From sequence record MF327009: DNA of 64,000 nt. The stretch is one strand, 5' to 3'. This document shows, in pieces, positions 835-63,757 of this stretch. The translations under genes were made by a program, and so were the position numbers. Origin of the DNA: Shigella phage Sf25. The first letter of the stretch is position 1. The number at the start of each line of letters is the position of its first letter. The notes beneath the pieces were generated by a model. The model was not told the DNA's origin and ran no database searches. It saw nothing but the letters and a program-made list of their open reading frames with translations.

Positions 835-1036
835 TTTTCACCTTTTTATTGATATGTCTTTTTCTATAGACAACTTTTTCTCGAGTTTCAAATTTATTCT
901 TAGCAGTCATAGCTCGAGCCCATAATACAGCCACTTCTTTCGCCTGTAAGTTTAATTCACGAGCAATTTCAATGAATGACTTTCCAGACTCATGAAGAGT
1001 AAACACCACAACCTCAGTTCTCATAATCAATCTCAT
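821..1036 (-). CDS. hypothetical small protein (71 aa); its 5' end and upstream leader lie inside a 202-bp tandem duplication
   Basis: ORF track; a second copy of its first ~38 codons plus leader is present at 1125-1238. Confidence 0.5.
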   Translation of the reverse strand: MRLIMRTEVVVFTLHESGKSFIEIARELNLQAKEVAVLWARAMTAKNKFETREKVVYRKRHINKKVKNGTV

Positions 1037-1326
1037 GTTATCGAGTTGGTGCCATTATATACATCATTTTCTGATTGTGTTTTGTGTGCTTTCAAAATGA
1101 AGAAAGGGGCCGAAGCCCCTTATGTAATACAGCCACTTCTTTCGCCTGTAAGTTTAATTCACGAGCAATTTCAATGAATGACTTTCCAGACTCATGAAGA
1201 GTAAACACCACAACCTCAGTTCTCATAATCAATCTCATGTTATCGAGTTGGTGCCATTATATACATCATTTTCTGATTGTGTTTTGTGTGCTTTCAAAAT
1301 GAAGAAAGGGGCCGAAGCCCCTTATG
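923..1326. repeat. exact tandem duplication, 2 x 202 bp (923-1124 and 1125-1326)
   Basis: The two units read identically, including the hairpin ggggccgaagcccc and the start codon of the 71-aa ORF. Confidence 0.9.
1090..1119 (-). terminator. rho-independent terminator hairpin (GGGGC-CGAA-GCCCC plus U-run) downstream of hoc; duplicated at 1292-1321
   Basis: GC stem with GNRA-type loop followed on the minus strand by a T-rich run. Confidence 0.55.
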
Positions 1327-1327
1327 A

Positions 1328-2395
1328 TTATGGATAGGTATAGATGATACCAGTTTCTAAAGCAGTTTTATGAATGATGTATCCATTACGTGATTCTTGA
1401 ACATCAACTTCTGGATAGTCTTTCATCATCTTCTGAAGCGTATAACGATGCAAGTAGTATTTACTATCTGGATCGTCAGTTTTCCAATCTTTACCTTCTT
1501 CGGTCATTTTTTGGATTTCATCCATAACCCACCAACCACACCAGATGTAAGCTGAAGTACGATGTGGAAGAGGATGAACATAAGGTAATTCACCTTCTGG
1601 CTCTGGAGCAACTTTATCAGTTACCTGAACTTGACCTTCCGCCGTAATAGTTTTGCTATCATAATCAGCAGCAGTAACAGTTGCAGTAACTTCAATAGTT
1701 TGACTTCCAATAGATGAGGTATCAATGGTATATACATTAGTTGACCCTTCTACAGGAGAAGAATCTTTCTTCCATGAATACGCAATTTGCGCTTCTTCTG
1801 GAGCATCAGTGACATTAGCAGTAAATGTAGCCGAAGCATCTTGTTGAACGTTAATAGAAGGAGGAGTCAATGTAACCTGTGGATTCATTGTCTTCTTATT
1901 AACTGTTAATGATACTTCATTCGAAGTAACTTCCTTTTCATTGTAATTTTCAGCAGTTACTTGGGCTACGCATTTAATTCTTTTTACTCCACTTGTAGTT
2001 GGAGTATAGCTAAATGTAGAGTTAGTTTCTCCACCAACTTGTGAATCATCTACATACCACTGATACGTAGCAGATGCGCCTGATGGCTGCGAAGCCAAAG
2101 CAGCGGTAAATTCAACAGCTGTTCCGATTACTCCTTCCGGAGGACTATTAGGAGTTACGGCTAAGGTAGTCGTCTGTGTCTTATTTTGAACTGTGATAGT
2201 TGTACTAATTTCAGCTGTTTCGGGACTACTATCGGCAACTTGATTTGTTGCAACTACTTTAATAGTCTTTTGACCGGCAGGTCCTTTTAATACATAACTA
2301 AAAGTTGCTTCAGCTCCATCTTGTGGAACATCATCTACAGTCCAAGCATATGTAATAGGTCCATCTCCAGTTTGACCACTGGGCGTAGCAGTAAA
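1328..2395 (-). CDS. hoc: Hoc (highly immunogenic outer capsid protein, Ig-like domains); 5' end missing, no ATG/GTG in the open frame upstream of TTG 2098
   Basis: Frame open from 2395 to 1328; translation ...FTATPSGQTGDGPITYAWTVDDV...ASATYQWYVDDSQ...ELPYVHPLPHR...IIYTYP matches recalled T4 Hoc from about residue 22; a TAA immediately precedes F22. Confidence 0.8.
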   Translation of the reverse strand, partial: FTATPSGQTGDGPITYAWTVDDVPQDGAEATFSYVLKGPAGQKTIKVVATNQVADSSPETAEISTTITVQNKTQTTTLAVTPNSPPEGVIGTAVEFTAALASQPSGASATYQWYVDDSQVGGETNSTFSYTPTTSGVKRIKCVAQVTAENYNEKEVTSNEVSLTVNKKTMNPQVTLTPPSINVQQDASATFTANVTDAPEEAQIAYSWKKDSSPVEGSTNVYTIDTSSIGSQTIEVTATVTAADYDSKTITAEGQVQVTDKVAPEPEGELPYVHPLPHRTSAYIWCGWWVMDEIQKMTEEGKDWKTDDPDSKYYLHRYTLQKMMKDYPEVDVQESRNGYIIHKTALETGIIYTYP

Positions 2396-3015
2396 TTAAT
2401 GTAATAAATTAAGCTAAATAATGTTTGGTGTGCAGAAGCATGCTCAAAACTAGTTGGGTGAGATTTCCAATCCGGAGTTTCAGCGATCCATTGATAAATC
2501 CACCAAGGAACAGTACAGAATCCTGGATTTTTTCCAATCAACTGAAGATTCGGGCTAAAGTTTTCCGGAAGAGTAAATACAGACGGCTTTTCAGATTCAA
2601 TAATCTCAGCTACAGCCTGTTCGAATTTTTCTTCAACAAAAGGAGTATCTTCAATCAAAACATCGGTATTTTCAGGAATTTTATCCGTTTCTACTACTTC
2701 AATTTTAATGTCAGATTTAACTGGAGAATCAATCAAAAGTGCTGCTTCTGGATTGACTTCTTCATCGTCATATTTTAATCCCTCTGCAGCATCAGCAGCA
2801 TCAATTAAGTCTTTAATAGATAACCCATCAGTCTCTGGCATAGGTTCACTAGCGAGCTTCTGGAGAGCTTCTTCAATATCAACAACGATATTATCAAAAG
2901 ATTTATTCTTTTTGACCTTTATACCAAACTGTTCAGCATATTCAGCTAATTTAGCTTTAGCTTCTTTGTTATCATCAAGAGCCTTCAGCTCTGCAATATA
3001 ATCTTTATCTATCAT
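2335..3015 (-). CDS. inh: Inh-like protein (prohead protease inhibitor); 3' end reads about 20 codons into the hoc region in another frame
   Basis: 226-aa ORF starting MIDKDYIAELKALDDNKEAKAK; position between hoc and uvsW as in T4. Confidence 0.6.
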   Translation of the reverse strand: MIDKDYIAELKALDDNKEAKAKLAEYAEQFGIKVKKNKSFDNIVVDIEEALQKLASEPMPETDGLSIKDLIDAADAAEGLKYDDEEVNPEAALLIDSPVKSDIKIEVVETDKIPENTDVLIEDTPFVEEKFEQAVAEIIESEKPSVFTLPENFSPNLQLIGKNPGFCTVPWWIYQWIAETPDWKSHPTSFEHASAHQTLFSLIYYINLLLRPVVKLEMDLLHMLGL

Positions 3016-6813: not shown

Positions 6814-6834
6814 ATTTGAATAAAAGGAGCATCT

Positions 6835-7584
6835 ATGGCAAACATTATTCGTTGTAAATTACCAGATGGTGTTCATCGTTTTAAACCATTTACGGTAGAA
6901 GATTATCGAGATTTTTTGTTAGTTCGAAACGATATAGAACATCGGTCACCACAAGAACAAAAAGAAATAATTACTGATTTAATTGATGATTATTTTGGAG
7001 ACTATCCGAAGACTTGGCAACCATTTATATTTTTGCAGGTATTTGTAGGGTCAATAGGTAAAACTAAAGTACCGGTCACATTTGTATGTCCAAAATGTAA
7101 AAAAGAAAAGACAGTTCCATTTGAAATATATCAAAAAGAATTAAAGGAACCTGTTTTTGATGTAGCTAATGTTAAAATTAAATTAAAGTTTCCTTCTGAG
7201 TTTTATGAAAATAAAGCAAAGATGATTACTGAAAATATTCATTCTGTTCAAGTAGATGAAATATGGTATGATTGGAAGGAAATTAGCGAGTCCAGTCAAA
7301 TAGAACTAGTTGACGCCATCGAGATAGAAACATTAGAAAAAATTCTCGATGCAATGAATCCTATTAATTTAACTCTACATATGTCATGCTGTAATAAGTA
7401 CATTAAAAAATACACTGATATAGTAGACGTGTTTAAGCTATTAGTTAACCCAGATGAGATATTTACTTTTTATCAAATTAATCACACACTCGTAAAAAGT
7501 AATTATAGCTTAAATTCAATAATGAAAATGATTCCTGCTGAGCGCGGATTCGTATTAAAACTGATTGAGAAGGATAAACAATAA
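6835..7584 (+). CDS. 51: baseplate hub assembly protein gp51
   Basis: 249-aa ORF, length and position as in T4. Confidence 0.8.
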
Positions 7585-22465: not shown

Positions 22466-22807
22466 TTATGCTTTCTGCTTACCAAAACGAGAAGCATCAT
22501 CTCGAAGAACCGCACGTGCTCGGCGCATGATCTTCTCAACAGTTTGATTGATACGAGAGTTCGACCCACGCTTGTAGCCAGCGCGTTTAGAATCACCAAC
22601 TTTCTTTTCAACTGCTTTCTTTGCTTTAGCTTGTTTTTTCTGCTTACCAAAACGAGAAGCATCATCTCGAAGAACCGCACGTGCTCGGCGCATGATCTTC
22701 TCAACAGTTTGATTGATACGAGAGTTCGACCCACGCTTGTAGCCAGCGCGTTTAGAATCACCAACTTTCTTTTCAACTGCTTTCTTTGCTTTAGCTTGTT
22801 TTGCCAT
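22466..22807 (-). CDS. small highly basic protein, expanded from about 58 to 113 aa by an in-frame 165-bp tandem duplication
   Basis: Translation MAKQAKAKKAVEKKVGDSKRAGYKRGSNSRINQTVEKIMRRARAVLRDDASRF with the 55-aa block repeated exactly. Confidence 0.55.
   Translation of the reverse strand: MAKQAKAKKAVEKKVGDSKRAGYKRGSNSRINQTVEKIMRRARAVLRDDASRFGKQKKQAKAKKAVEKKVGDSKRAGYKRGSNSRINQTVEKIMRRARAVLRDDASRFGKQKA
22472..22801. repeat. exact tandem duplication, 2 x 165 bp (22472-22636 and 22637-22801), in-frame
   Basis: Identical nucleotide units; boundary ambiguous by 1 bp. Confidence 0.9.
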
Positions 22808-23428: not shown

Positions 23429-23734
23429 CTAACAGGTAACGAATTTTTGTTTAATTTCTTTTGGCTGCTTAAGACCCAGAGCTACAAAAGGGTGTGGAAC
23501 GTTTCGAATTTGACCAACTGGAAGAGAAGTCAAATCACCAACTTCACAGAAACCTTCAGGAACATCAGGACCAACAGAGTGAACTACACACAGTTCAGGA
23601 ACTTCACCTTGAACACGTTTACCGATAATAAGTCCTGATTCTGTAACTTCTTCATCACCGGCTTGTGCAGGTTCAGAAACTAAAATAACATATTCACCGA
23701 CAGCACGAATTGGTAGCTGTTGTACTTCAGACAT
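23429..23734 (-). CDS. 31: gp31 co-chaperonin (GroES-like); ORF is 101 aa versus 111 aa recalled for T4
   Basis: [44 protein letters not shown] matches recalled gp31; ends at ...KFVTC. Confidence 0.8.
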
Positions 23735-28196: not shown

Positions 28197-28639
28197 TTAT
28201 CCTCTTTTAACTCTTGACGATAATAACATATCATAGTTTTCTGATCATGTACATATCGTTTTACATCATTAAGCCAAATGCGAAATTCCTGGGAATCTTC
28301 AAATGGCATACCGACCCAAGCTTTACCATCAATAACTTTAACTTGCCAGGATAGTTTAGCTTCATCGTATGACTTTATTTGTACTGGCCAATTAGGATGA
28401 ACTGTTTCTTTCTTTACTTCTAGAGGCTTTGTCGAACAACCAACTAGAAGACCAATAGATAATATTACCCAAGCTTTACCATCAATAACTTTAACTTGCC
28501 AGGATAGTTTAGCTTCATCGTATGACTTTATTTGTACTGGCCAATTAGGATGAACTGTTTCTTTCTTTACTTCTAGAGGCTTTGTCGAACAACCAACTAG
28601 AAGACCAATAGATAATATTACTGCTGATAGTTTAATCAT
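28187..28639 (-). CDS. putative lipoprotein, expanded from about 99 to 150 aa by an in-frame 153-bp tandem duplication
   Basis: Signal/lipobox-like LSIGLLVGC-S; the 51-aa block ILSIGLLVGCSTKPLEVKK...DGKAWV is repeated exactly, giving two lipobox copies. Confidence 0.5.
   Translation of the reverse strand: MIKLSAVILSIGLLVGCSTKPLEVKKETVHPNWPVQIKSYDEAKLSWQVKVIDGKAWVILSIGLLVGCSTKPLEVKKETVHPNWPVQIKSYDEAKLSWQVKVIDGKAWVGMPFEDSQEFRIWLNDVKRYVHDQKTMICYYRQELKEDKCK
28314..28619. repeat. exact tandem duplication, 2 x 153 bp (28314-28466 and 28467-28619), in-frame
   Basis: Identical nucleotide units. Confidence 0.9.
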
Positions 28640-31162: not shown

Positions 31163-32332
31163 TTAAAAATATTTTTTAAAACTCATCATAACTTTATCAT
31201 CAACATCATTATCAATCTGTGCTACAAGGTAAGATGACAGTTCTACTTCTTGTGGCGCGGATTGAACATTATCAGAATTAAGATATTCACGAATCCAAGG
31301 ATACGGATGTTTAACCGGAGCATCAGTAATTGGGCATGGAAGACCGCACTGTTTCATACGAGATACAGTTAAGTAATCAATAAAGCTCCACATGCTATTT
31401 GTATTTAATCCAGGAACATCGCCATCTTTAAATAAATGAACTGCCCAGTCTTTTTCTTGACGGTTAACTTCCATGAAAATATCAACTGCTTCTTGTTCAC
31501 ACTCTTGGGCAATTTTAACCCATTCATCACCATCAGTGCCAAGTTGAAGTTGACGAATAATATATTGGGTGCCTTTAAGGTGAAGCTGCTCATCACGTGC
31601 AATGAACTTCATAATCTTGGCATTACCTTCCATGATTTCCATGTTTTTATGGAAGTTAAAGGTACATGCGAAAGATACATAAAAACGAATAGCTTCCAAT
31701 GCGTTGATTACATGCAAGCAGAGGTAAAGAGATTTCATTAGCGCTCGTTTAGTACATTCAACAACTTTGCCTAGCTCTTCTTTACGAAATCCTTCTGATA
31801 AAATTCCTTCATAATCTTCAACCGCATTCTGGTATTCACGAGTCTTAACTAGAACATCATCGTAATAGCGACCAATGGACTCGGCACGTTTCATAATAGC
31901 TTTATCTAATACAATCTCATCAAACACCTTTGACGGATCAGTATAAAGATTTCGCATGATATGAGTATATGAACGACTGTGAATAGTTTCACTAAAAGTC
32001 CATGTAGCAACCCATGTATCAAGGCTTGGATCTGAAATTAATGACATAAGTACAGCAGACGGTGCACGACCCTGAATGCTATCCAAAAGTGATTGATACT
32101 TCAGGTTATTAGTAAAAATATCTTGCTGATATTGAGGAAGCTTGTTAAATTGTGCAGCATCCATCATCAAGTTTACTTCTTCAGGACGCCAGAAAAATGA
32201 CAATTGCTTTTCGGTTAAATCTTCAAAAACTTTATGGCGTTGAATATCATAACGCGCAATACCAAGACCTGAACCGAAGAACATAGGTTCTTTTAAAACA
32301 TCAACTGGATTTGTATTAAAAACTGTGCTCAT
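31163..32332 (-). CDS. nrdB: ribonucleotide reductase small subunit, uninterrupted (no intron)
   Basis: Continuous 389-aa ORF MSTVFNTNPVDVLKEPMFF...; ferritin-like di-iron protein. Confidence 0.9.
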   Translation of the reverse strand: MSTVFNTNPVDVLKEPMFFGSGLGIARYDIQRHKVFEDLTEKQLSFFWRPEEVNLMMDAAQFNKLPQYQQDIFTNNLKYQSLLDSIQGRAPSAVLMSLISDPSLDTWVATWTFSETIHSRSYTHIMRNLYTDPSKVFDEIVLDKAIMKRAESIGRYYDDVLVKTREYQNAVEDYEGILSEGFRKEELGKVVECTKRALMKSLYLCLHVINALEAIRFYVSFACTFNFHKNMEIMEGNAKIMKFIARDEQLHLKGTQYIIRQLQLGTDGDEWVKIAQECEQEAVDIFMEVNRQEKDWAVHLFKDGDVPGLNTNSMWSFIDYLTVSRMKQCGLPCPITDAPVKHPYPWIREYLNSDNVQSAPQEVELSSYLVAQIDNDVDDKVMMSFKKYF

Positions 32333-32383: not shown

Positions 32384-34897
32384 TCATAATTTACAGGATG
32401 AACAATCTTCAGCTTTTGGAGTTTCTATTTCATAATCATCAGTACCAGAACCGTCACGGGTATTATGATAATAGAAATTTTTTCCGCCAAAATACCAAAA
32501 ATATAAAAGGTCATCAATCATTATTGACATTGGAACCTTTCCTTTTGGAAAAATCTGCGGGTCATAATATGTATTAGCTGAAGCTGATTGACATACCCAT
32601 TTCAGCATAATAGCTACTTGCGTAAGATAAGGTTTATTGCCTTTCTTAGCTAATTTCCACGTATAATCATAGAGGTCTATGTTATGCTCAATATTGGGCA
32701 CGACTTGATTAAAGGAACCCTCTTTTGATTCTTTAACAGAGACTGGTCCACGTGGAGGCTCGATACCGTTTGTACTGTTAGAAACTTGGGAAGATGACTC
32801 ACATGGCATAAGTGCTGATAATGTGCTATTACGGATGCCAAAGAGCTTAAGGTCTTCCCGCAGCGACGACCAGTCACAAACGTATTTTGGAGCTGCGATT
32901 TGGTCAATCTTTTTATTGTACCAGTCGATAGGTAATTCGCCTCGAGACCAACGAGTGTCTGAATAATATTCGCAAGGTCCTTTTTCTTTGGCGAGCTTAA
33001 TGGATGCTTTAATGAGTCCATACTGTAATCTCTCAAATAGTTCATGTGTTAAATCGTTAGCATCTTCATAAGAAGCAAAATTACTTGCCAGCCAAGCTGC
33101 ATAGTTAGTAACACCTACACCAAGATTTCGACGCTTTTTAGCTTTTTCTGCTTCAGGAACTGGATATCCTTGGTAATCCAAAAGATTATCAAGAGCACGA
33201 ACTTGGACTTCTGCCAATTCATTAATTTTATCTTGGTCTTGCCAATCAAAGTTATCTAACACAAATGCAGATAACGTACACAATCCAATTTCAGCATCAG
33301 GACTATTCACATCATTTGTTGGAATAGCAATTTCACAGCACAAGTTGCTCTGACGAATAGGTGCCTTTTCACGAATAAACGGAGTATAGTTATTCGTATT
33401 ATCTATGAACTGTACATAAATCCTTGCTGTTCCTGAGCGTTCAGTCATGAGCAATTCAAATAGTTCACGGGCTTTAATACGCTTTTTACGAATATTAGGG
33501 TCTTTTTCTGCTGCTTCGTATAATTCACGGAAACGGTCTTGGTCTTTAAAATAAGAATAATAAAGCTCGCCACCCATTTCATGCGGACTGAACAAAGTAA
33601 TGTAATCGTTCTTTCCGAATCGTTCCATCATCAAATCATTCAGCTGAACACCATAATCCATATGACGGATACGGTTTTCTTCTACACCTTTGTTATTTTT
33701 CAAAACGAGAAGATTTTCAACTTCCAAATGCCAAATAGGATAATAAGCAGTAGCAGCGCCGCCACGAATTCCACCCTGTGAGCATGATTTAACAGCAGTC
33801 TGAAAATGTTTCCAAAAAGGAATAACACCAGTATGGCGTACTTCACCTGTGCCAATCTTAGAACCTTCGGCACGAATCATACCAACGTTAATACCAATTC
33901 CATAATCCATATGACGGATACGGTTTTCTTCTACACCTTTGTTATTTTTCAAAACGAGAAGATTTTCAACTTCCAAATGCCAAATAGGATAATAAGCAGT
34001 AGCAGCGCCGCCACGAATTCCACCCTGTGAGCATGATTTAACAGCAGTCTGAAAATGTTTCCAAAAAGGAATAACACCAGTATGGCGTACTTCACCTGTG
34101 CCAATCTTAGAACCTTCGGCACGAATCATACCAACGTTAATACCAATTCCAGCGCGTTTGGAGATATATTCAACAATTGAAGCAGAAGCCTTATTGATAG
34201 ACTTTAATGAATCACCTGCTTCAATAACAACGCATGAACTAAACTGCCGAGTTGGAGTACGGCAACCAGCCATAATAGGAGTTGGCAGTGAAATCTGTCG
34301 AGTAGATACTGCTTCATAAAAACGGATAACGTGTTTTAATCTATCAACAGGTTCATCTTGATGCAATGCCATTCCAATAGTCATAAATGCAAACTGTGGA
34401 GTTTCATAAATTTGACCAGTGGTTTTATCTTTAACTAGATATTTTTCTTTTAATTGCATCGCCCCGGAATAAGTAAATTCCATATCCCGCTCGTGCTTAA
34501 TTTTTGATTCTAAAAATGTAATTTCTTCGGCAGAATATTTTGACAACAATTCAGGGTCATATTTACCTTCATTTACACAGTAAGAAATGTGGTCAATAAA
34601 TGAACGTGGTTCATACTGCCCATAAACATGCTTACGAAGAGCGAACATTAAACAGCGTGCAGCTACATATTGATAATCAGGCTCTTCAACTGAAATAGAA
34701 TTCGCAGCAGCCTTAATTACAATGGTTTGAATGTCATCAGTTGTCATTCCATCACGGAGATATGATTTAATATTTTCATATAATTCATAAGGATCTACAG
34801 ATGTTCCTTCAGCTGCCCAAGATAAAACTTTAATAATTTTTTGCGGGTCAAAGCTCTGAGAAACACCACTACTTTTGATAACATTAATTAATTGCAT
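32384..34897 (-). CDS. nrdA: ribonucleotide reductase large subunit carrying an in-frame 249-bp tandem duplication (837 aa versus 754 aa expected)
   Basis: MQLINVIKSSGVSQSFDPQKI...; 83-aa block GIGINVGMIRAEGSKIG...NRIRHMDY repeated exactly. Confidence 0.9.
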   Translation of the reverse strand: MQLINVIKSSGVSQSFDPQKIIKVLSWAAEGTSVDPYELYENIKSYLRDGMTTDDIQTIVIKAAANSISVEEPDYQYVAARCLMFALRKHVYGQYEPRSFIDHISYCVNEGKYDPELLSKYSAEEITFLESKIKHERDMEFTYSGAMQLKEKYLVKDKTTGQIYETPQFAFMTIGMALHQDEPVDRLKHVIRFYEAVSTRQISLPTPIMAGCRTPTRQFSSCVVIEAGDSLKSINKASASIVEYISKRAGIGINVGMIRAEGSKIGTGEVRHTGVIPFWKHFQTAVKSCSQGGIRGGAATAYYPIWHLEVENLLVLKNNKGVEENRIRHMDYGIGINVGMIRAEGSKIGTGEVRHTGVIPFWKHFQTAVKSCSQGGIRGGAATAYYPIWHLEVENLLVLKNNKGVEENRIRHMDYGVQLNDLMMERFGKNDYITLFSPHEMGGELYYSYFKDQDRFRELYEAAEKDPNIRKKRIKARELFELLMTERSGTARIYVQFIDNTNNYTPFIREKAPIRQSNLCCEIAIPTNDVNSPDAEIGLCTLSAFVLDNFDWQDQDKINELAEVQVRALDNLLDYQGYPVPEAEKAKKRRNLGVGVTNYAAWLASNFASYEDANDLTHELFERLQYGLIKASIKLAKEKGPCEYYSDTRWSRGELPIDWYNKKIDQIAAPKYVCDWSSLREDLKLFGIRNSTLSALMPCESSSQVSNSTNGIEPPRGPVSVKESKEGSFNQVVPNIEHNIDLYDYTWKLAKKGNKPYLTQVAIMLKWVCQSASANTYYDPQIFPKGKVPMSIMIDDLLYFWYFGGKNFYYHNTRDGSGTDDYEIETPKAEDCSSCKL
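33651..34148. repeat. exact tandem duplication, 2 x 249 bp (33651-33899 and 33900-34148), in-frame within nrdA
   Basis: Identical nucleotide units; boundary ambiguous by 3 bp. Confidence 0.9.
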
Positions 34898-34915: not shown

Positions 34916-35271
34916 TCGTCTTTAAACAATCGGTTAACTATATGAGCTATTATATCACCATGACACGGCTTTGGTTTACATGTGCATCCTAGCCTCATTC
35001 CACGTAAAGGCTCTAAATGTGCTTTAGTTATTTCTCCGGATTTAATTCGACGTATAAAATCTTTTTTGAATAATTCAATGGCAGCCTCCCGGCTCGTCTT
35101 TAAACAATCGGTTAACTATATGAGCTATTATATCACCATGACACGGCTTTGGTTTACATGTGCATCCTAGCCTCATTCCACGTAAAGGCTCTAAATGTGC
35201 TTTAGTTATTTCTCCGGATTTAATTCGACGTATAAAATCTTTTTTGAATAATTCAATGGCAGCCTCCCGGC
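34916..35271. repeat. exact tandem duplication, 2 x 178 bp (34916-35093 and 35094-35271), just upstream of the nrdA start
   Basis: Identical units; unit length not a multiple of 3; replaces the 3' end of the upstream ORF. Confidence 0.9.
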
Positions 35272-35392
35272 TGCCAGCATCTTTACCGACGTAATTTCCC
35301 CAAAATGTACCACGGTGAATATTAACATCAAAGTCGGATTTATATTTATTCACTACCCGGCATAGACGGCCCGCGCGGTTGTAGGTGTTCAT
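35075..35392 (-). CDS. hypothetical protein (nrdA.1-like); C-terminus altered by the 178-bp duplication
   Basis: ORF track; without the second copy the frame would end ...NRLFKDDFQVEDLCN overlapping the nrdA ATG. Confidence 0.45.
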
Positions 35393-35609
35393 ATTGTTCT
35401 TCCGTTAAAACAGTAATATCGTAGTAACAGTCAGAAGAAGTTTTAACTGTGGAAATTTTATTATCAAAATACTCACGAGTCATTTTATGAGTATAGTATT
35501 TTTTACCATAAATGGTAATAGGCTGTTCTGGTCCTGGAACTTCTAACTCGCTTGGGTTAGGAAGTGTAAAAAGAACGGCACCAGAAGTATCTTTAAATCG
35601 TAAAATCAT
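35346..35609 (-). CDS. hypothetical protein (87 aa)
   Basis: ORF track. Confidence 0.4.
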
Positions 35610-36466
35610 ATTGCCATTTTCCCTTTAATTGCTGGATGCGATTCATAATTTTCAAGGATAAAATCTTTCGGTTTCATGTATTCAGTTAACCAGTAAAGCT
35701 GTGTTTCGGTGTCACAATTTCCAAACTCTATAGGCCAATCAATTTTAAGTTCACACAGTTCTTTAGGCTCACGACGTAAAATTTCTTTACATTGCTCAGT
35801 ATGATTCATATAGATGTGAGTATTACCACCAGAAAATATCAAATCTCCTGGGATAAGATTACACATCTTAGCCACAATATGCGTCAAGGCAGCGTACGAG
35901 GCAATGTTGAATGGCAAGCCCAAGAAAACATCTACACTTCTTTGGTACCATTGTAAATCAAGATAACCATTACGCACATTAAACTGATAGAACATATGAC
36001 AGGGCGGTAATGCCATTTGATTGATTTCAGCTGGATTCCATGCTGAAACGATTTGACGTCGATCAGTTGGTAATTTTTTAATACGATCAATAGTTTCAAC
36101 TAATTGATCCACACCACCGAAATCACGCCATTGTTTACCGTATATAGGACCAAGTTCACCACTATGATATCCTAGGTCTTTAGCTTGGTTTTCATAATTG
36201 TCATCCCAGATAGTTTTACCTTGAATAAGACTACCGTGAGTAAGAAGACGTAAATCATTAACATTGGTAGAACCGGAAATAAACCATAAAAGCTCAGCAA
36301 TGCATGCATTCCAGGCGAGCTTCTTAGTTGTTACTGCAGGAAAACCTTTGGTTAAATCCCATCGTAATTTAGTACCGAACAAAGCAATTGTTCCTGTGCC
36401 CGTTCGGTCATCGGTTTCATAGCCATTTTCAAAAATGTCTTTAATTAAATCTTGGTATTGTTTCAT
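35606..36466 (-). CDS. td: thymidylate synthase, uninterrupted (no intron)
   Basis: Continuous 286-aa [28 protein letters not shown] with catalytic PPCH; same length as spliced T4 Td. Confidence 0.9.
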
Positions 36467-38440: not shown

Positions 38441-38887
38441 CTACTTTTTGAAAGTTTTTCGCAAAAGTTCAATGATTTCATCTACATTGTTTTCGTCAAC
38501 AATGCAGTGAATTTTTGTTACGCCAGAAACCTTGTCTATGACTTCATCTACATTGTTTTCGTCAACAATGCAGTGAATTTTTGTTACGCCAGAAACCTTG
38601 TCTTTGACTTCATCTTCTTCAGAAGTCGGTTCTTTATACTCACGAAAACAATGAAATTCATCTTCGCAAATTTCTAAAAGTCTATCTTTGAGGTAAAAAT
38701 GCTTTCCATTTGCGCATTCAATGTGTTTTACTGCTTTATATCCATTAGCGACGGAAACTTCTTTAACTTCAAACCATCCGCCATTATCTCGAATAGCTTT
38801 AACGATTGATGAATTAGAACGTGGGCTATAATTAATAAATGTATCAATAAGTCTTGGAACAAGTTCATACTTTTTGCCAATATACAT
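38441..38887 (-). CDS. hypothetical protein (148 aa) with an internal 22-aa tandem repeat
   Basis: ORF track; ...VKDKVSGVTKIHCIVDENNVDE VIDKVSGVTKIHCIVDENNVDE.... Confidence 0.45.
   Translation of the reverse strand: MYIGKKYELVPRLIDTFINYSPRSNSSIVKAIRDNGGWFEVKEVSVANGYKAVKHIECANGKHFYLKDRLLEICEDEFHCFREYKEPTSEEDEVKDKVSGVTKIHCIVDENNVDEVIDKVSGVTKIHCIVDENNVDEIIELLRKTFKK
38472..38615. repeat. near-exact tandem repeat, 66-bp unit, about 2.2 copies, 2 mismatches
   Basis: Position i matches i+66 across 38472-38549 except at 38476 and 38538. Confidence 0.8.
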
Positions 38888-40311: not shown

Positions 40312-40809
40312 TTAATACTTGCAAGATTTCACAGTTTCAATAAAAACTTTTTTAGCTTCCTGTGAATCAATATTTAAAATTTTTCTATAAGCCTTTAACT
40401 TTATAGAATAATTATTCCAAACTAAATTATCAGTTTGTTGATCATGTTTATCAATTATATTTAAAAACGAATCAAGCAAGATAAACGTCTCAAACGAAAT
40501 TATGTTCGATTGCAGAAGTTTAAAAATATAACTTGACTGAACTTTTGGATTATACTCAAAAATTTCTTTAAAAGCAGAAACTTCAACTTTTTTACTAAAA
40601 TAATAAATGTTGCGAATATCTTCTTCAAACTTAAATTTAATTTGCTTTAAGCGTCCGATATATTCACGATAAAACACAAGTGCATCAGCGTCAGAGATGT
40701 CACCAATCCAAGCATCTTGGTTAGCAACCAAATTGCTTATAAAGATTAAAGCAAGTTCCTTTAATTTATATTTTTCTGATAACTTCTGGAAAAAATACTT
40801 ATCCCTTCG
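40312..40809 (-). CDS. 59: gp59 helicase loader, C-terminal 165 residues only (about residues 53-217), fused in-frame to gene 33
   Basis: RRDKYFFQKLSEKYKLKELALIFISNLVANQDAW...ETVKSCKY matches recalled T4 gp59; the N-terminal about 52 residues are absent. Confidence 0.75.
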   Translation of the reverse strand, partial: RRDKYFFQKLSEKYKLKELALIFISNLVANQDAWIGDISDADALVFYREYIGRLKQIKFKFEEDIRNIYYFSKKVEVSAFKEIFEYNPKVQSSYIFKLLQSNIISFETFILLDSFLNIIDKHDQQTDNLVWNNYSIKLKAYRKILNIDSQEAKKVFIETVKSCKY

Positions 40810-41127
40810 ATTAGTTTTTTCACAACGAACAACAGAAGGACGTAAAAGATTTTCGTCGATAGCTTCTGACTGAATTTTTTCAATTATACCCGAAGGAATA
40901 AATTTAGCAAATTGAGTTTCAGGAATAGAATTTTCTTCTAAGAACGCTGTTGTAGCTTCAAGATAACTCATTCCAAACTCTTCTACCATTTTTTCAATAA
41001 TAAATCCATTTTCTTGGCGGTCAAGAAGCTTTGCTATTTCATCCTTTTCTTTCTTAATTGAAAGTTCTTTTTCTGAAAGACCGGTCTCATCGACCGGACG
41101 AATATCATTTAGAGAAAACTGTGTCAT
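40810..41127 (-). CDS. 33: gp33 late-transcription co-activator, residues 1-106, lacking its last about 6 codons and stop, fused in-frame to gene 59
   Basis: MTQFSLNDIRPVDETGLSEKELSIKKEKDEIAKLLDRQENGFII...VVRCEKTN continues directly into the gp59 sequence. Confidence 0.75.
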
Positions 41128-41374
41128 AAAGTTCAACTACCTCTTCAGTTTCAGCTTCAAACACATCACGGTTATCTTTATGATACAAAGCTAACAGACG
41201 ATTAAACATCTTACCATCAACGCCAAGTTCATCTTTGGCACGAATTCGAATATCTTTAATCAATTCATTATAACCAGAAATTTTCAGTTTATGATCAGAT
41301 GCTTCTTTAATAAATTTAGCTAAGTCTTCGCCATGGATAGCTTCATCAAATTCAACCATTTCTTTTTTAGCCAT
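41105..41374 (-). CDS. dsbA: DsbA double-stranded DNA-binding protein
   Basis: 89-aa ORF; position between rnh and 33 as in T4. Confidence 0.75.
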   Translation of the reverse strand: MAKKEMVEFDEAIHGEDLAKFIKEASDHKLKISGYNELIKDIRIRAKDELGVDGKMFNRLLALYHKDNRDVFEAETEEVVELYDTVFSK

Positions 41375-48134: not shown

Positions 48135-51100
48135 ATGGCTACTTTAAAACAAATACAATTTAAAAGAAGCAAAACTGCAGGTCAACGTCCTGCTGCTTCA
48201 GTATTAGCCGAAGGTGAATTGGCTATAAACTTAAAAGACCGTACTCTTTTTACTAAAGATGACTCGGGAAATATTATTGATTTAAGCATTTCTGCCGGTG
48301 GTAACATTAGTGGAAATATCACTCAAAATGGTGATTATTTACAAAACGGCACGTATAATCTTAATGGAAATCAGTTTGTTTATGCAGGAAAGTATATTGA
48401 ATTCTTGCCAAAAACTGCTGGAAATGGTGCTTGGGCAAATCAGCACACAAATAAAGCTCCAATTTTCACCGATTTGAGTTCAACTACTTCAACTTCTGAA
48501 TATCATCCGCTAATTAAACAACGTTATAAAGATGGAACGTTTTCATTAGGGACTTTAGTTTCTGAAGGCTCAATGAAGATACACTATATCGATGAAACTG
48601 GCACTTCAAAATATTGGACTTTCCGACGTGATGGTGGTTTTGTTGTTGATAGTGGTAGTTTAACTGTTACTGCTGGAAACATATCTGCTTCAGGCAATAT
48701 TAATTCGGCATCAGGGGTTGTTTCAGCTCCTCAAATTAATACAAAAACCATTGTTTTAGATACAAAAGCATTTGGACAATATGATTCGCAGTCATTAGTT
48801 CAGTATGTTTATCCTGGCACTGGCGAAACAAACGGTATAAACTATCTTCGTAAAGTTCGCGCAAAATCAGGTGGTACAATTTATCATGAAATAGCTTCAG
48901 CTCAAAGTGGAAAAAGCGATGAAATTTCGTGGTGGACTGGAAATACAGCCGTTAATAAACAAATGGGTCTTCGTAATGATGGTGCAATGGTATTACGTCG
49001 TTCACTTGCTATTGGCACAATTACTACAGATGAAAACGTAAATAACTATGGATCTGCTGGAGCAATGGGAGAAAAATACATTGTTCTTGGAGATGCGTCA
49101 ACTGGACTAGCTTATAAAAAGACAGGAGTTTATGACTTAGTTGGTAGTGGTTTATCTGTTGCTTCTATCACTCCCGACAGTTTTCGTAGTACCCGTAAAG
49201 CAATTTTTGGACGTTCTGAAGACCAAGGCGGTACATGGCTTCTTCCTGGTCAAAACGCTGCTCTTCTTTCAGTTCGTACAGATATTGATCAAAATAATAA
49301 CGGTGATGGTCAAACTCATATTGGATATAATAGTAACAGCAAGTTTTATCATTATTTTAGAGGCAGAGGCCGAATGGCTGTTGGAATGGCTGAAGGTCTT
49401 ATTGTTGAGCCTGGAATTTTAGATATTAAAACTGGTTCAAATACTGTTTCTATTAGAGCTGATGGCGGAATTTCATCTACTCAGCGTCTTTCATTGCAGA
49501 ATGGTATATTTTTATCTTCTGACGGAAATAACAACGGTATATCGTTTAAAGCTTCTAGCAGTATAGATGGAACTAAAACTCTTAATTGGGATGCTGGTAC
49601 TCGTGCAGGTCAAAACAAAAATACAGTAATTTTAAAAGCATGGGGAAATTCATTTAATACAAGTGGTGGAACTGATAGACATACTGTATTTGAAGTTTCT
49701 GATTCGCAAGGATACTACTTTTATGCTCAACGTACTACCCCTGCATCCGGTCAAACAGTAGGTCCTATTAATTTTAAATTTAATGGTACTGTAGAAACCG
49801 GTCATATCAATGGATTAGGTAATATTACTTTATCTGGGGCAGTTATAGCAGATTCTGCTAATATTAAAGGACCGCTAAAAATATCTAATGCTAATACAGC
49901 TGATGCTTTTAGAATATGGAACGCTGAATATGGAGCCATTTTCCGTCGTTCAGAAACATCATTGCATATTATTCCTACACTTAAAGATGCAGGGGAAAAT
50001 GGTGGAATAAGTAATCTTCGCCCATTAAGTATTGATCTTTCAAACGGATTTGTGCAAATGCATCATTCTCTTTCTGTGGGGAATACAGTAAGAACGAATG
50101 GATTGTTTGCTGTGGATACTTCAGCTGCTCTTGTTGCAATTAACAGATGTTCCTATTGTGAAACAAAGATACGTTCAAGGGAATAGCACCTATTCATTAG
50201 GTACTTTAATTAATGGTGGTGATTTCCGTTTACATTACCATGAAGGCGGTGACAGTTCTTCAACAGGTGCAGTTATAAAAGATATTTCCTGGGAATTTAA
50301 ACGTAATGGTGATTTCTATTCGCCAGGTCGTTTACGTACAGGAAATATCTATATTGGAACTGATGGTAATATCACGGGTGGTTCTGGTAACTTTGCTAAC
50401 TTGAATACAACTTTAAACCGTAAAGTTAATTCTGGTTTTATTACTTATGGAGCAACTGCAGGTTGGTACAAGTTTGCAACAGTAACAATGCCTCAAGCTA
50501 CATCAACCGTTTCAATTACAGTCACTGGCGGAAATGGATTTAATTCTGGATCATTTAATCAGTGTGCAATTTCTGAAATTGTTCTTCGTACAGGAAACAA
50601 TAATCCTCTGGTGATACATATGACATTTATGTTAATATGGGAACATATGCTAATCAGTTGATATTTAACTATAGTTCTGTTGATAATGCCACAGTTCAAA
50701 TTATTGGCGCATTCAGTTCAGCTCAAAATCCTGTTGATGCATTGCCAGAAACATATGTTAAAGGTCAGGTAGCAGATGTATTGACTAACTTAGTTGATTC
50801 TGGAAAAACGAAGCGTTTTGTTGCTGAATCTGAAATAGCTATTAATAATCAAACTGGATTACGTATTACGAGTAATGGTGATAAATCTGGTTCAAATTCA
50901 GTATTATTCAGAAATGATGGATCAGCGTTTTATATTCTTTTAACAGATAAAAACGCAGCAGATGGAAATACGACTGCCACAGAAGGAGATTGGAATGGTA
51001 AACGTCCTTTCCAAATTAATATGACTTCTGGTGAAGTAACATTCGGAAATAATATTAATATTTCTGGAAACGGAAGCATTACTTGGACAAAAGCCGGAGC

Positions 51101-51770
51101 AAACCCTAGAAATATGAGAATATTTCATGCAGGTGATGCTTCTCGTGGTAACCGTATTGAAATCGCAGATGATACTAATTATATTGCTTACTTTGAAAAA
51201 ACTCCAGGTGGAGCTAACCGCTTTGTAGTTAATGGTGCTACTGTAGCTGGTGTTAATCAAATGAATTCATTTGGTATTAACATCAATAACGCGCTTGGTG
51301 GAAATAGTATAGCATTTGGTGATAATGACACGGGTATTAAGCAAAACGGCGATGGATTATTAGACATTTATGCGAATGGTGTGCAAACGTTCCGTTTCCA
51401 AAACGGTGATTTGTACTCATATAAAAATATAAATGCCCCAAACGTTTATATTCGTTCTGATATTCGCTTAAAATCTAATTTCAAACCTATCGAAAATGCA
51501 CTTGATAAAGTTGAAAAACTCAATGGTGTCATTTATGATAAAGCTGAATATATCGGTGGAGAGGCAATTGAAACTGAAGCGGGTATTGTGGCTCAAACGT
51601 TACAAGACGTTTTACCAGAAGCCGTCCGTGAAACAGAAGACAGCAAGGGTAATAAAATACTCACTGTTTCTTCTCAAGCCCAGATTGCTCTTCTGGTTGA
51701 AGCTGTGAAAACGCTTTCTTCTCGTGTAAAAGAACTTGAATCTAAACTTCTTGAATCTAAACTTATGTAA
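48135..51770 (+). CDS. 37: long tail fibre distal subunit gp37, T2-type with C-terminal intramolecular chaperone domain; reading frame broken twice (about 50140-50160 and 50604-50615)
   Basis: Three consecutive ORFs in three frames (48135-50186, 50098-50661, 50637-51770), all gp37-like: [37 protein letters not shown]...; [34 protein letters not shown]; C-terminal SDIRLKSNF...VKELESKL. Confidence 0.8.
51456..51767 (+). other. peptidase S74-type intramolecular chaperone / self-cleavage domain at the gp37 C-terminus
   Basis: Motif RSDIRLK followed by a coiled-coil-like tail; domain assignment by recollection of the family. Confidence 0.55.
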
Positions 51771-51800: not shown

Positions 51801-52498
51801 ATGGCAATTGTAGGTGTTCCTGGCTGGATTGGTGAATCTGCCGTGAATGAAACAGGACAGCGTTGGATGGATGCTGCAATGAGAGCAGTCCGTGTTTCAG
51901 TTCCCGGTTGGATGAGCTCAATGGCCGGACAATCTAAAGAAGTATATTATAGCATTGGTGCTAGTAATTCTTATAATAAAGATACATTAATAAACTGAAT
52001 GCATACGTGACACTTAATATCAATTCAGGCGTGCATGTTTGGGGCCGTGGCGGGAATGGCGGAAATAACTCTGCCGGTGGAGCAGGAGGAACTGCAATAA
52101 ATAATGGAATTGGAACTAGATTGCGTATTAACAACAATGGTGTTATCGCAGGAGGCGGTGGCGGCGGTGGAGGCGGATATTATTCTCCTTTTTCACAAAT
52201 GAAATTGACTTTTGGCGGTGGCGGCGGTCGTCCATTTGGTGCTGCTGGCGGGTCTGCTAATATGGAACAGGGCGCTACTGCTGGTACTATTTCTGCACCT
52301 GGTAAAGGGTCTGTCAATGGTATCTATAATGGCGGGAATGGCGGTGATGCTGGTGCCGCAGGTGGTAAATGTAATATTCGTGGGCAAGGATCAGAATATA
52401 ACGGCGGTGCGGCCGGTAAAGCTGTTACTGGTAATGCTCCAACTTGGACTAAGGTTGGTACAATATATGGCCCTCTGATATTCTATTTGGTGTTCTAG
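51801..52498 (+). CDS. 38: gp38 receptor-recognising adhesin (T2-type, glycine-rich islands); split by a frameshift near 51980-51996
   Basis: ORF 51801-51998 (MAIVGVPGWIGESAVNETGQRWM...) and ORF 52007-52498 in another frame with GGGGGGGGG islands; the second frame is open back to 51980. Confidence 0.75.
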
Positions 52499-57620: not shown

Positions 57621-57680
57621 CTAAAGCTTGAAATTATTACGATAGAACTGCATCACATGTTCGTTATGGAAATTACTCAT
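57621..57680 (-). CDS. stp: Stp-like peptide (19 aa; T4 Stp is 26 aa)
   Basis: Manual translation [19 protein letters not shown]; first 16 residues match recalled T4 Stp. Confidence 0.4.
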   Translation of the reverse strand: MSNFHNEHVMQFYRNNFKL

Positions 57681-58529: not shown

Positions 58530-58718
58530 TTATTTTACACCATTCCAAATTGTTTCAACTACAGATTTTAAGCCATTTTGATGAATGTCCATTCCGACTA
58601 CCGCCATCAAATAGATTCCAACTACGTTTAACATATCAATCATTAAAACGATTGGGAATATACTCAAAACTACTAGTATTATAACTACATTCCATATAGC
58701 TTTAATAATCTTTTTCAT
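58530..58718 (-). CDS. small membrane protein (about 62 aa from MKKIIKAIWNVVIIL)
   Basis: ORF track 58530-58853, trimmed to the internal Met preceded by GGAGG and an early promoter at 58746-58776. Confidence 0.4.
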   Translation of the reverse strand: MKKIIKAIWNVVIILVVLSIFPIVLMIDMLNVVGIYLMAVVGMDIHQNGLKSVVETIWNGVK

Positions 58719-61330: not shown

Positions 61331-63757
61331 TTAGGCCGCAAGGGCCTTCATAGTTTTAGCGATTTGAGAAACTTCATCATCACTTAAAGAGTTGCGATAA
61401 CCGATGAAGTCGGAAACAATACGGAATTTCTTGGTAAACTCAGCAACCATTTTATCACTGTTTTTTGAAGCATTATTTGATAATACATCAAAAAGATTAG
61501 TTACTGTCCAGATGTCATGACCGATGGTACCTTTTCCACCGTTGAAATATACGCCCCGCAATGAACTAACTATATTAGCGAGTCGTGTATATTCTTCAGA
61601 AACTTCATCTGTACTGAAGTACTTCATCATAAAATCTAGTTCAGGATACTTGATAATTTTATCAATATATCGTTGAGCTGAACTTGAATAACCTACGTAC
61701 TTATCATAATCTACATCATCAAAAGCATCTACATATAAATCACGCAGAGTTTCAAAAATACATTGGCACTGACCGAGTTCTTTTACCTTTTTCTGCAAAA
61801 GCGGACGAATAACATAAAATTCATTAATGCCAATAAGATTAGCCATACGAATCAAAATATTCATAGATGGATGACAAAGAGATGTAGTACCATCCATAGA
61901 GAAAATATCAGAACGATGCATATACGCTACATAACCAGTAATTTCATCTGCTTCTGATGTGAGCGTAAACAGTTCCTCTTTTTCCCATCGCCCATCTTTA
62001 ATTTCAAACTTAAATGCTGTAGCAGCTTTAGGACGAGGAGCTTTACTTTTAACTACCTTTGGAATATAGCTTTTAACTAAAGCTTCAATTTCTGACAAAT
62101 AATGAATGTTAACTTCATCACTTTCAAACATCGCCATAATATCAGGAAGTAAATCAATCTGCGATTCTACTTCTGGATTAATAAACAGAAGACGCTCATT
62201 GTGATGAATATTCAAAGTGTTATTAAATTCACTATCATCTAACGCATGTGCTAATCCACGAACAATATTAACACGATTTTTAATATTATCAATAACGATA
62301 TTAATTTTTGTTGTATTAATACCAAACAGACGATAACTTGATGCAACGGCTGAAGTTTCATGACTTTGCTTAATGCGTTTCAGTCGAGGGTCAAGATTTA
62401 CTTCATACACAACTCCTGCATTGCATAACTTACTGTCAGGTTCAAACATGCTCTGCATCTTTTTATATGACAGATTTTTAGTCGTGAATTTGACTGAATT
62501 ACTAATCATATAATCTCGAGCAGAATATCCCATCTTCATCAATTCACGATATGTGTGACGAGGAGATGTAGATTCTTTAAATCGTTTTACATCTTCATTG
62601 AATGCCTTCTCACTAAGCTCTTTAACACGCTCAATAATATTTTTACGAGTACGATCATCTAGTGAAAGAGCTTCGCGTGATGGAGCAATATCAAGTGAAC
62701 CCATTGGAAACTTAATGTAATTCACTTCATTGCGAATGCTTAGCCAGTTACGGTCTCTAATAACACCATCGATAGGATAAACAATACCGCCATAGATAGC
62801 ATATAATCCACCACGATCAGGCCAGTATCTTTCTGGATTTACACCATAATAATCATCAAAATCAGGAAAATAATCAATTTCAATAATATTTTTACGAGTA
62901 CGATCATCTAGTGAAAGAGCTTCGCGTGATGGAGCAATATCAAGTGAACCCATTGGAAACTTAATGTAATTCACTTCATTGCGAATGCTTAGCCAGTTAC
63001 GGTCTCTAATAACACCATCGATAGGATAAACAATACCGCCATAGATAGCATATAATCCACCACGATCAGGCCAGTATCTTTCTGGATTTACACCATAATA
63101 ATCATCAAAATCAGGAAAATAATCAATTTCGCGGTCAAGACCATTAATGATAGCCAAATCTTTGAACGGTCGCATGATATAAGAAACTTCATAAGCAAAG
63201 TTTCTAAAGTCTTTTTCTTCAACTGGAACTACGATTTCAATACCAGTTTTATCATCTGGACCCATTTCTTTTACGAATGTAGGTTTAATCTGTGGGCCAT
63301 CACCATCCATGTAAGCTACATAACCACGAATTTCACCTTTATGATACGAAGTAATACTAAACGTATCAGTATAACTAAACGGAGATTTAGAACCTAAACC
63401 AAATCCGCCAATAAAGTCATTAGATTCAGCCTTAGATGAACTGAAGTATGAATTATACAGCCCAGGAGAATTATCATCACCCTGAATATCAAAATCACTC
63501 ATACCCGGACCAAAATCTCGACAAACAAATCGTGGATCTAATCGTCCTGGAACTTGAATGATAAATTTTTCAGGATTTCCATTAAGTGCATGAGCATCAA
63601 TCATGTTAGTAATCAATTCACGGACTACTGCGCGAATCTTGTTTGTATACAAATCAGATGACAGAATTTTAAATACTTTAGGATTTGCTGCGATGCTAAA
63701 TGCTTTTGATTTAGAACCATTGCCAAGAATTGTTTCTTTTTCAGTGGTGATAATCAT
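61331..63757 (-). CDS. rIIA: rIIA protein carrying an in-frame 249-bp tandem duplication (808 aa versus 725 aa expected)
   Basis: [20 protein letters not shown]...; 83-aa block [24 protein letters not shown]...TRKNIIE repeated exactly. Confidence 0.9.
62631..63128. repeat. exact tandem duplication, 2 x 249 bp (62631-62879 and 62880-63128), in-frame within rIIA
   Basis: Identical nucleotide units. Confidence 0.9.

Follow-up and report, generated by a model that had tools for sequence, protein, structure and literature searches.

Interruptions and Duplications Known from T4-like Phages

The reductase genes of T-even phages are naturally interrupted by group I introns and homing-endonuclease insertions, and nrdA, the gene for the large subunit of ribonucleotide reductase (RNR), also occurs as split 'genes-in-pieces', which means that a modified nrdA need not be absurd in itself. 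These natural interruptions are mobile DNA of foreign origin, are shared by several genomes, and do not cost the protein any of its sequence. Genuine tandem duplications of T4 include the classical ones of the rII region and amplifications that arise on a kilobase scale under selection by host defence; they are single, selected, and unstable events of kilobase size, and the very active recombination of T4 causes unselected tandem repeats to be lost quickly. False tandem duplications and deletions are a further known class, produced by errors of assembly or joining when overlaps are retained or gaps are closed on concatenation. A literature search on the instability of T4 duplications and on phage misassembly gave nothing directly usable. 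The encoded enzyme can be compared with the class Ia RNR alpha subunit of Escherichia coli (NrdA/R1; PDB 2r1r, 1rlr, 8vhp), in which the allosteric specificity loops, loop 1 (residues 259–278) and loop 2 (residues 292–301), both sit in the first half of the catalytic barrel (PMC4728125).

Structure of the nrdA Repeat

The sequence analysed here, referred to as the window, is a 64-kb segment of a Tequatrovirus (T4-like) genome. As written, nrdA occupies 32384..34897 on the minus strand and encodes a protein of 837 aa with ATP-cone, all-alpha, and barrel domains. The Pfam domain set (PF03477, 63.6 bits; PF00317, 72.9 bits; PF02867, 529.5 bits; all above the cut-offs) and the phmmer matches to class Ia alpha chains of known structure (8vhu, E = 2.5e-289; 2r1r, E = 6e-282) bear out the gene identity given in the original prediction. 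The likeness to E. coli NrdA/R1 extends to all three domains, with phmmer E values of about 1e-280 to 1e-289, and to the surroundings of the active-site cysteines, as the active-site strand (FSSCV) and the finger loop (SNLCxEI) are aligned as 'qfsscvvie' and 'rqsnlcceia', once each. The protein of the window differs in that the stretch matching R1 residues 253–335 is present twice.

This doubling results from a tandem repeat of 249 bp. The unit nearer the 3' end of the gene (33651..33899, minus strand; residues about 333–415) and that nearer the 5' end (33900..34148, minus strand; residues about 250–332) are base-for-base identical and lie in frame within the 837-aa ORF, in full agreement with the repeat originally described. 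Tandem Repeats Finder (TRF) reported a period of 249, 2.0 copies, 100% matches, and a score of 1002. The exact periodic match is prolonged by 3 nt, a CCA microhomology at 34149..34151, so that the array covers 33651–34151, the position of the junction is ambiguous by 3 nt, and the boundaries of the repeat could be in any codon phase. The 83-aa unit GIGINVGMIRAEG...NRIRHMDY appears at residues 250–332 and again at residues 333–415, and the copy-to-copy junction reads ...ACGTTAATACCAATT/CCATAATCCATATGA.... An exact repeat of 249 nt cannot have originated by chance.

When aligned with the PDB chains, the repeated unit is the equivalent of E. coli R1 residues 253–335 and holds loop 1 and loop 2 entire, being part of a half-barrel and not an autonomous domain (PMC4728125). 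Because of the repeat, the match to the barrel profile is broken into two stretches, as are the PDB matches. A single uninterrupted first half-barrel (about 224–439 in E. coli, with one loop 1 and one loop 2) is not found in the protein as written and is recovered exactly when one copy is removed. Neither the solved structures nor the listed database homologues contain a doubled loop 1/loop 2 stretch. Structure prediction of the 837-aa protein, based on an alignment of near-identical homologues only, gave an uninformative model with a mean pLDDT of 27.9 and a pTM of 0.25. The original view that an insertion of 83 residues at this place would very likely inactivate the enzyme is plausible.

Comparison with nrdA of Relatives

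The comparison with relatives that had been proposed as a check showed nrdA to be 2,265 bp long (754 aa) in these phages versus 2,514 bp in the window, and the lengths of 837 and 754 aa originally given are both correct. All listed phage records covering nrdA (among 681) span 2,265 bp, corresponding to a single copy, and a 754-aa NrdA is encoded in seven of eight related loci. The best 120 protein matches in a collection of 5.8 billion clusters are, without exception, 754 aa long with one copy each. The 837-aa protein had no database record, and a 50-nt sequence spanning the junction had no exact match in viral, metagenome, and genome collections. A natural interruption was observed in one related locus (L001, PP400789.1), where NrdA is encoded as pieces of 477 aa and 329 aa around an I-HmuI/NUMOD-like ORF; the window, in contrast to such interruptions, contains a self-copy of 83 barrel residues that is found nowhere else.

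Removal of one copy yields a protein identical at 754 of 754 positions to a natural NrdA (P0001) that occurs on 75 public contigs, and the de-duplicated gene aligns with those of 10 relatives over 2,265 bp without gaps. At the DNA level, the window differs from every relative by 1.5–4%; the best phage record shows 96.4% identity over 25 kb, and contigs encoding identical NrdB, UvsW, MotA, or de-duplicated NrdA reach DNA identities of no more than 96–98.5%. Since the copies are 100% identical although the window has diverged to this extent, the events post-date all of this divergence.

Other Tandem Duplications in the Window

The window contains eight tandem duplications of 15–249 bp, six of which are perfect two-copy repeats of 153–249 bp detected by TRF and a scan for exact periods. 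Besides that of nrdA, the perfect repeats comprise a 202-bp duplication that spans the intergenic region between hoc and 24.3 plus codons 1–28 of 24.3 (923..1326, minus strand; single copy in 6 relatives), an in-frame 165-bp duplication of most of the small gene 30.9 (22472..22802, minus strand; single copy in 11 relatives), an in-frame 153-bp duplication extending pseT.2 from 99 to 150 aa (28314..28621, minus strand; single copy in 13 relatives), the pseT.2 product of relatives matching Pfam Phage_T4_Spanin, and an out-of-frame 178-bp duplication in nrdA.1 (34916..35272, minus strand; single copy in 13 relatives) that begins 19 nt upstream of the nrdA start codon. The last of them is the twin in rIIA to which the original prediction had drawn attention; it is indeed present at 62631..63130 (minus strand) as a perfect in-frame duplication of 249 bp, lengthening the product from 725 to 808 aa, and is single copy in 6 relatives. 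The two remaining events are an in-frame 66-bp duplication in frd.2 (38472..38603, minus strand; single copy in 24 of 24 relatives with the unit), whose copies are identical at 65 of 66 nt and differ at a site where identity of the relatives to the unit falls short of 100%, and a perfect 15-bp duplication at the 3' end of gene 37 (51735..51764, plus strand) not present in KRT47 and PinkRuby. Each duplication is single-copy sequence in all relatives covering the site (6 to 24, depending on the site). Junction microhomology amounts to 3 nt at nrdA and to 0–3 nt at each of the five further perfect repeats, which may be roughly as random placement would yield, the estimated expectation being about 0.8 nt per junction. 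Perfect tandem duplications with periods of 40–600 were absent from 1.54 Mb of 88 related loci and from a further 0.40 Mb, which gives six in the 64-kb window versus none in 1.94 Mb of relatives.

Deletions and Disrupted Genes

The window also has ten private short deletions of 29–173 bp, and all of these approximately 18 duplications and deletions are absent from every relative examined. At the inh/hoc junction (2394..2396, minus strand), 133 bp are lost: inh lacks its last 19 codons, hoc lacks its 5' end, and the intergenic spacer is gone. Between genes 26 and 51 (6817..6819), the window lacks 28–29 nt of a stretch kept in 6 relatives, whose sequence across the site includes TATAAATA. The deletion at gene 31, encoding the co-chaperonin (23431..23436, minus strand), removes 94 bp, namely the last 10 codons and downstream sequence, and that at gene 33/59 (40809..40812, minus strand) removes 173 bp kept in 13 relatives, consisting of the gene 33 3' end and codons 1–52 of gene 59, which leaves a gp33-gp59 fusion ORF (40312–41136, 274 aa) with gp59 lacking 52 residues.

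The tail-fibre region is also affected. In gene 37, encoding the distal tail fibre (50146..50607, plus strand), deletions of 173 bp (50146/50147) and 70 bp (about 50607) were sized against PinkRuby, which has the closest gp37; the 461 bp between them are frameshifted, and the gene is divided into ORFs of 683, 187, and 377 aa. The gp37 fragment had no database record. Gene 38 lacks about 104 bp internally, with a resulting frameshift (51990..52000, plus strand), and a further 71 bp are lost between gene 38 and the holin gene t (52469..52471, plus strand), comprising the gene 38 3' end, the spacer, and the first nine codons of t including the start. The other two deletions lie at ac (57630..57633, minus strand; 134 bp of the 5' part and upstream sequence, kept in 6 relatives) and between ndd.2a and ndd.4 (58607..58625, minus strand; about 128 bp, kept in 5 relatives), the latter being the least certain of the events because this region also varies naturally.

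These events exist in the sequence, are private to the window, are perfect or near-perfect, and in some cases break genes essential in T4. Genes 31, 33, and 37 are essential according to T4 genetics, and given this essentiality, the lesions in genes 37, 38, t, 33/59, and 31 mean that the genome as written cannot be that of a viable phage.

Origin of the Repeat

The original prediction took the repeat for a mutation carried by the phage, a reading that did not stand, as the repeat is one of approximately 18 private repeated or missing blocks, several of which break essential genes. For this reason, a defect of the sequence is a better reading than a defect of the enzyme, and we assign a probability of about 0.85 to the nrdA repeat being a flaw of the sequence text, presumably introduced at the construction stage, rather than a property of the phage. 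Register would have been lost repeatedly relative to a collinear T4-like template, giving eight stutters, in which a stretch was rewritten, and ten skips, with the nrdA repeat as one of the stutters. Adjacent blocks joined at a wrong offset would produce a perfect tandem repeat if the overlap were retained and a deletion if a gap were closed without filler; alternatively, the register errors could derive from in silico generation or editing. The most likely cause, we infer, is a register error of one of these kinds, in assembly or joining or in silico, and the underlying phage most likely possesses a class Ia RNR alpha subunit of the usual 754 aa. The window shares with assembly-error artefacts perfect private copies far above the background, repeated and skipped blocks of similar size side by side, indifference to the viability of the genome, and the exact restoration of natural genes on removal of the extra copy; it differs from them in the non-blind placement of its events (mostly in-frame duplications in dispensable genes, deletions on gene boundaries, and paired sizes).

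A genuine recent tandem duplication, in which slippage or unequal recombination at CCA copied 249 bp of nrdA, would be tolerated via the host reductase with an enzyme probably dead or misregulated; this origin is unlikely. It agrees with the 3-nt microhomology, with the closest relatives shared by both flanks of the repeat, with larger duplications that spare essential genes and usually preserve the reading frame, and with the in-frame position of the repeat itself in a gene listed as auxiliary, required only on nrd-defective hosts, in a table of PMC5931544 quoting Miller et al. (2003). It would, however, need eight co-arising and fixed duplications whose copies are free of differences, apart from a single mismatched position in the 66-bp repeat, alongside ten deletions, several of them in essential genes. 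Such repeats number zero in 1.9 Mb of relatives, and that of nrdA is absent from the listed phage records (about 680) and the best 120 protein clusters. Unselected tandem repeats are also generally lost quickly in T4. The resemblance to genuine T4 duplications lies in head-to-tail repeats in a T4-type genome, one of them in rIIA; in contrast to those, the window has eight events of 15–249 bp without evident selection, beside lethal deletions. Independent molecules or isolates carrying the duplication were not found, as the junction and the protein are absent from collections, and a genome able to replicate is not what the window contains, taking gene essentiality from T4 genetics.

Considerably less probable is that the window is a consensus drawn from a population of mixed or defective phages (a metagenome comprising a number of T4-like strains or damaged genomes, for example), in which an assembler joined minority structural variants and the duplication is present in some molecules. 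The 461-bp block of gene 37, which is ~88% identical to the relative matching its flanks at 98–99.9%, points in this direction, as do the jumps in identity at the tail-fibre junctions and the single mismatch between the frd.2 copies, which falls where relatives vary, at a site that could be polymorphic. On the other hand, six large repeats of 100% identity are not expected from strains 2–4% apart, the junctions at nrdA, rIIA, 24.3, and 33/59 are without such jumps, and the nrdA product would remain an artefact in any case. A slightly smaller chance still is left to real DNA of a T4-like population with extreme template switching or illegitimate recombination, which would have produced duplications and deletions of 15–250 bp about every 3.5 kb at microhomologies of ≤3 nt, doubling the NrdA loops, while defective genomes survived by complementation in mixed infection. 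Least probable, to the point of being very hard to credit, is an adaptive domain duplication in which a second loop 1/loop 2 segment confers new allosteric or oligomeric behaviour. Its sole support is an in-frame repeat with both specificity loops complete in the unit; against it, no 837-aa homologue is present among the best 120 clusters, the zero divergence between copies implies no evolutionary history, the unit is no autonomous domain (PMC4728125), and an equally long repeat lies in the unrelated rIIA together with many other such events in the window.

If the events were real, they would represent an unprecedented rate of rearrangement in a T4-type phage and a natural experiment in which a class Ia reductase has its specificity loops doubled. 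With a normal reductase as the most likely state of the phage, the biological weight of the repeat is small, and its relevance concerns quality control. The presence of approximately 18 such errors in one window makes findings that rest on repeats, fusions, truncated or split genes, and missing promoters suspect pending verification of the sequence; this applies, for example, to the repeat in rIIA, the fused gp33-gp59 ORF, and gene 37 in its three pieces.

Placement of the Events

The observed placement of the events departs from what blind mis-joining predicts. None of the seven larger duplications hits an essential gene of a list compiled by us (p about 0.04), and lengths that are multiples of three were found for five of these seven duplications versus none of eight deletions included in the test (Fisher p = 0.007). 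Deletions fall on gene boundaries above chance (p = 0.002), and the event sizes repeat pairwise (249/249, 173/173, 133/134, and 70/71). Selection acting on real mutations would likewise favour in-frame duplications in dispensable genes.

A chimera of mixed strains at nrdA was rejected, as no identity discontinuity occurs at the junction, nor at those of rIIA, 24.3, and 33/59. The closest relative does not change across the nrdA junction, where 65% of control positions score equal or higher. Coverage drop-out at extreme base composition was also discarded, the event segments having ordinary G+C contents of 0.29–0.45, compared with an average of 0.355 for the window. Jumps in identity to relatives (p = 0.003 and < 0.001) were confined to the tail-fibre junctions, in the hypervariable region.

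Sequence of the nrdA Repeat and Its Occurrence in Related Phages

The nrdA gene of Sf25, as written in the sequence, contains a tandem repeat that the phage itself most likely lacks. Positions 33651-33899 and 33900-34148 are base-for-base identical in the window; Tandem Repeats Finder reported a period of 249, 2.0 copies, 100% matches and 0 indels, and in an exact-period scan the periodic match continued 3 nt past the two units, so that the array covers 33651-34151 and its junction has 3 nt of microhomology (CCA). The ORF as written (32384-34897, minus strand) encodes 837 aa, in which the 83-residue unit GIGINVGMIRAEG...NRIRHMDY occupies residues 250-332 and again 333-415. The original prediction had described this in-frame duplication and ORF, and every detail was borne out; a second claim, that rIIA carries a repeat of equal length, also held (249 bp, perfect, 62631-63130, lengthening the protein from 725 to 808 aa). 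Pfam detected an ATP-cone, an all-alpha domain and a barrel domain in the nrdA product, and phmmer matched it to E. coli R1 (NrdA) in the PDB with E-values of about 1e-280 to 1e-289. These matches identify it as the alpha subunit of a class Ia ribonucleotide reductase.

Comparison with the nrdA of relatives, which had been proposed as a check, returned a single-copy gene encoding 754 aa, the length of all 120 best clusters in a collection of 5.8 billion protein clusters. The gene was matched by 824 phage records, 681 of which cover it, and in every record among the matches listed it spans 2,265 bp, compared with 2,514 bp in the window. In seven of the eight contigs with an identical NrdB, NrdA has 754 aa; in the remaining one the gene is split. 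With one copy removed, the protein equals P0001, a natural NrdA present on 75 contigs, at all 754 positions, and alignments of the de-duplicated gene with ten relatives are gap-free (97.7-98.5%). No record of an 837-aa NrdA protein was found, and the 50-nt repeat junction was not found in viral, metagenome or genome collections. Other variation around nrdA was seen among related loci. In L001 (PP400789.1, 6781-9949), NrdA is divided into parts of 477 aa and 329 aa by a 236-aa ORF whose faint match is I-HmuI/NUMOD-like, apparently an intron or an inserted homing-endonuclease gene, and in L006 a GIY-YIG endonuclease gene (6898-7629) replaces nrdA.1; neither the L001-type insertion nor the L006-type gene was found in the window.

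Other Duplications and Deletions

The window is a segment of a Tequatrovirus (T4-like) genome, running from rnlB, 24.2, 24.3, hoc, inh, uvsW, baseplate genes 25-54, alt, 30, 31 and cd, through pseT, rnlA, denA, nrdB, nrdA, td, frd, 32, 59, 33 and rnh, to 34-38, t, asiA, motA, 52, ndd, denB, rIIB and rIIA. Its best phage record is Shigella phage KRT47 (96.4% identity across 25 kb). Apart from the extra and missing blocks, the encoded proteins match natural ones at 98-100% identity, which indicates that the lesions are superimposed on an otherwise healthy genome. Uninterrupted genes are present for td (35606-36466, 286 aa) and nrdB (31163-32332, 389 aa), and some related loci (L001, L008 and L109) carry a td intron containing I-TevI; such differences in interruption are ordinary natural variation among T-even phages. 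Compared with KRT47 alone, genes 30.1 and 30.2 are frameshifted by single-base deletions in T5/A5 homopolymer runs (at ~19450 and ~19825), apparently either ordinary errors of sequencing or natural pseudogenes.

Tandem Repeats Finder detected six perfect two-copy repeats within the 64 kb, including those of nrdA and rIIA. The others are of 202 bp in the hoc/24.3 spacer and the 5' end of 24.3 (923-1326), 165 bp in gene 30.9 (22472-22802), 153 bp in pseT.2 (28314-28621) and 178 bp in nrdA.1 (34916-35272). A 15-bp perfect repeat (CTTGAATCTAAACTT twice, 51735-51764), absent from KRT47 and PinkRuby, lies near the 3' end of gene 37, and frd.2 contains a 66-bp in-frame repeat (38472-38603) whose copies match at 65 of 66 nt, the sole mismatch being ATGATTTC versus ATGACTTC. 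The frd.2 unit is single copy in all 24 relatives carrying it, and this junction is not obtainable by simple duplication of single-copy sequence; it requires either a substitution after the duplication or two templates that differed slightly. Each duplication corresponds to single-copy sequence in every relative covering the site, and no perfect tandem duplication of period 40-600 was found in 1.54 Mb from 88 related loci or in a further 0.40 Mb.

Ten deletions, none present in relatives, were called from chained alignments of the window with KRT47, PinkRuby and about 25 further close loci. A 133-bp deletion at ~2395 removes the 3' end of inh and the 5' end of hoc; it is separate from the natural length variation of Hoc (window hoc, 1328-2395), which among relatives (L009, L092-L096) has 281, 376 or 471-472 aa, with differing numbers of Ig-like domains. 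At 6818, 29 nt are missing from the gene 26/51 spacer, where relatives contain TATAAATA, a late-promoter-like motif, and a 94-bp loss at ~23432 leaves gene 31 (co-chaperonin) without its last 10 codons. A 173-bp deletion at ~40810 takes away the end of gene 33 and the first 52 codons of gene 59, a stretch present in all 13 relatives covering the site; what remains is a 274-aa in-frame fusion (40312-41136) of residues 1 to ~109 of gene 33 (late transcription co-activator) and gene 59 from residue 53. Gene 37 (distal tail fibre, 48135-51770) is broken into three reading frames (ORFs of 683, 187 and 377 aa), having lost 173 bp at 50146 and 70 bp at ~50607 relative to the closest gp37 (PinkRuby/Sf24); the intervening 461 bp are in another frame at only ~88% identity, compared with 98-99.9% in the flanks, and no phage record shares this arrangement. 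The remaining deletions are of ~104 bp within gene 38 (~51995, frameshifting), 71 bp at ~52470 (taking the 3' end of gene 38 together with the initial 9 codons of holin t), 134 bp at ~57630 (5' part of ac) and ~128 bp at ~58620, in the ndd.2a/ndd.4 region, which is also naturally variable. Genes 31, 33 and 37 are essential in T4, and because all three are damaged the genome as written could not propagate.

Origin of the nrdA Repeat

The simplest account of the nrdA repeat, to which we assign a probability of about 0.85, is an error of sequence construction. The text would have lost register against a T4-like template, stuttering in eight places and skipping in ten, as a result of mistakes during assembly, joining, generation or editing. 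This is favoured because the copies show perfect identity in a window that diverges by 1.5-4% from each of its relatives, because junction microhomology is only 0-3 nt, because both signs of error occur at similar sizes, and because errors disregard viability. The original prediction is retained as to the repeat in the sequence, and finds only partial support in its reading as an enzyme mutation. That the phage DNA itself underwent a recent duplication is unlikely: eight events would have to fix together with copies essentially undiverged, in a genome that also bears lethal deletions, and persist despite the very active homologous recombination of T4. The consensus of a mixed population, a considerably less probable source, would fit the jumps in identity to relatives at the tail-fibre junctions, but finds no support at nrdA, where both flanks share the same closest relatives. 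Adaptive domain duplication, likewise without support, is highly improbable.

The placement of the events is not as blind mis-joining would predict. Duplications lie mostly inside dispensable genes, none of the seven larger ones touching an essential gene (p ~0.04), and gene boundaries are spanned by six of the eight larger deletions, more than by chance (p = 0.002). Lengths divisible by three were found for five of seven duplications versus none of eight deletions (Fisher p = 0.007), event sizes recur pairwise (249/249, 173/173, 133/134 and 70/71), and the affected segments have ordinary base composition. Patterns of this kind are a hint that the process was gene-aware or rule-based (in-silico editing or generation, for example) and not a plain assembler error. 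A biological reading gains nothing from them, since the deletions are lethal.

Predicted Consequences for the Enzyme

AlphaFold2 gave an uninformative model of the 837-aa NrdA (mean pLDDT of 27.9), from an alignment of only 32 sequences at least 99% identical. In the phmmer alignment, the 83-residue unit corresponds to residues 253-335 of R1. In R1, the specificity effector is sensed and the substrate latched by loop 1 (259-278) and by loop 2 (292-301, including Cys292, Gln294 and Arg298), both of which belong to the first half-barrel at residues ~224-439 (PMC4728125). The repeat would therefore double the whole of both loops and, if real, would at least disturb specificity regulation and barrel closure, making an inactive 837-aa enzyme plausible, where inactivation had originally been considered very likely. 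T4 nrdA is classed as auxiliary, being required only when the host is nrd-defective (Miller et al. 2003, as quoted in PMC5931544), so its loss of function would be tolerated.
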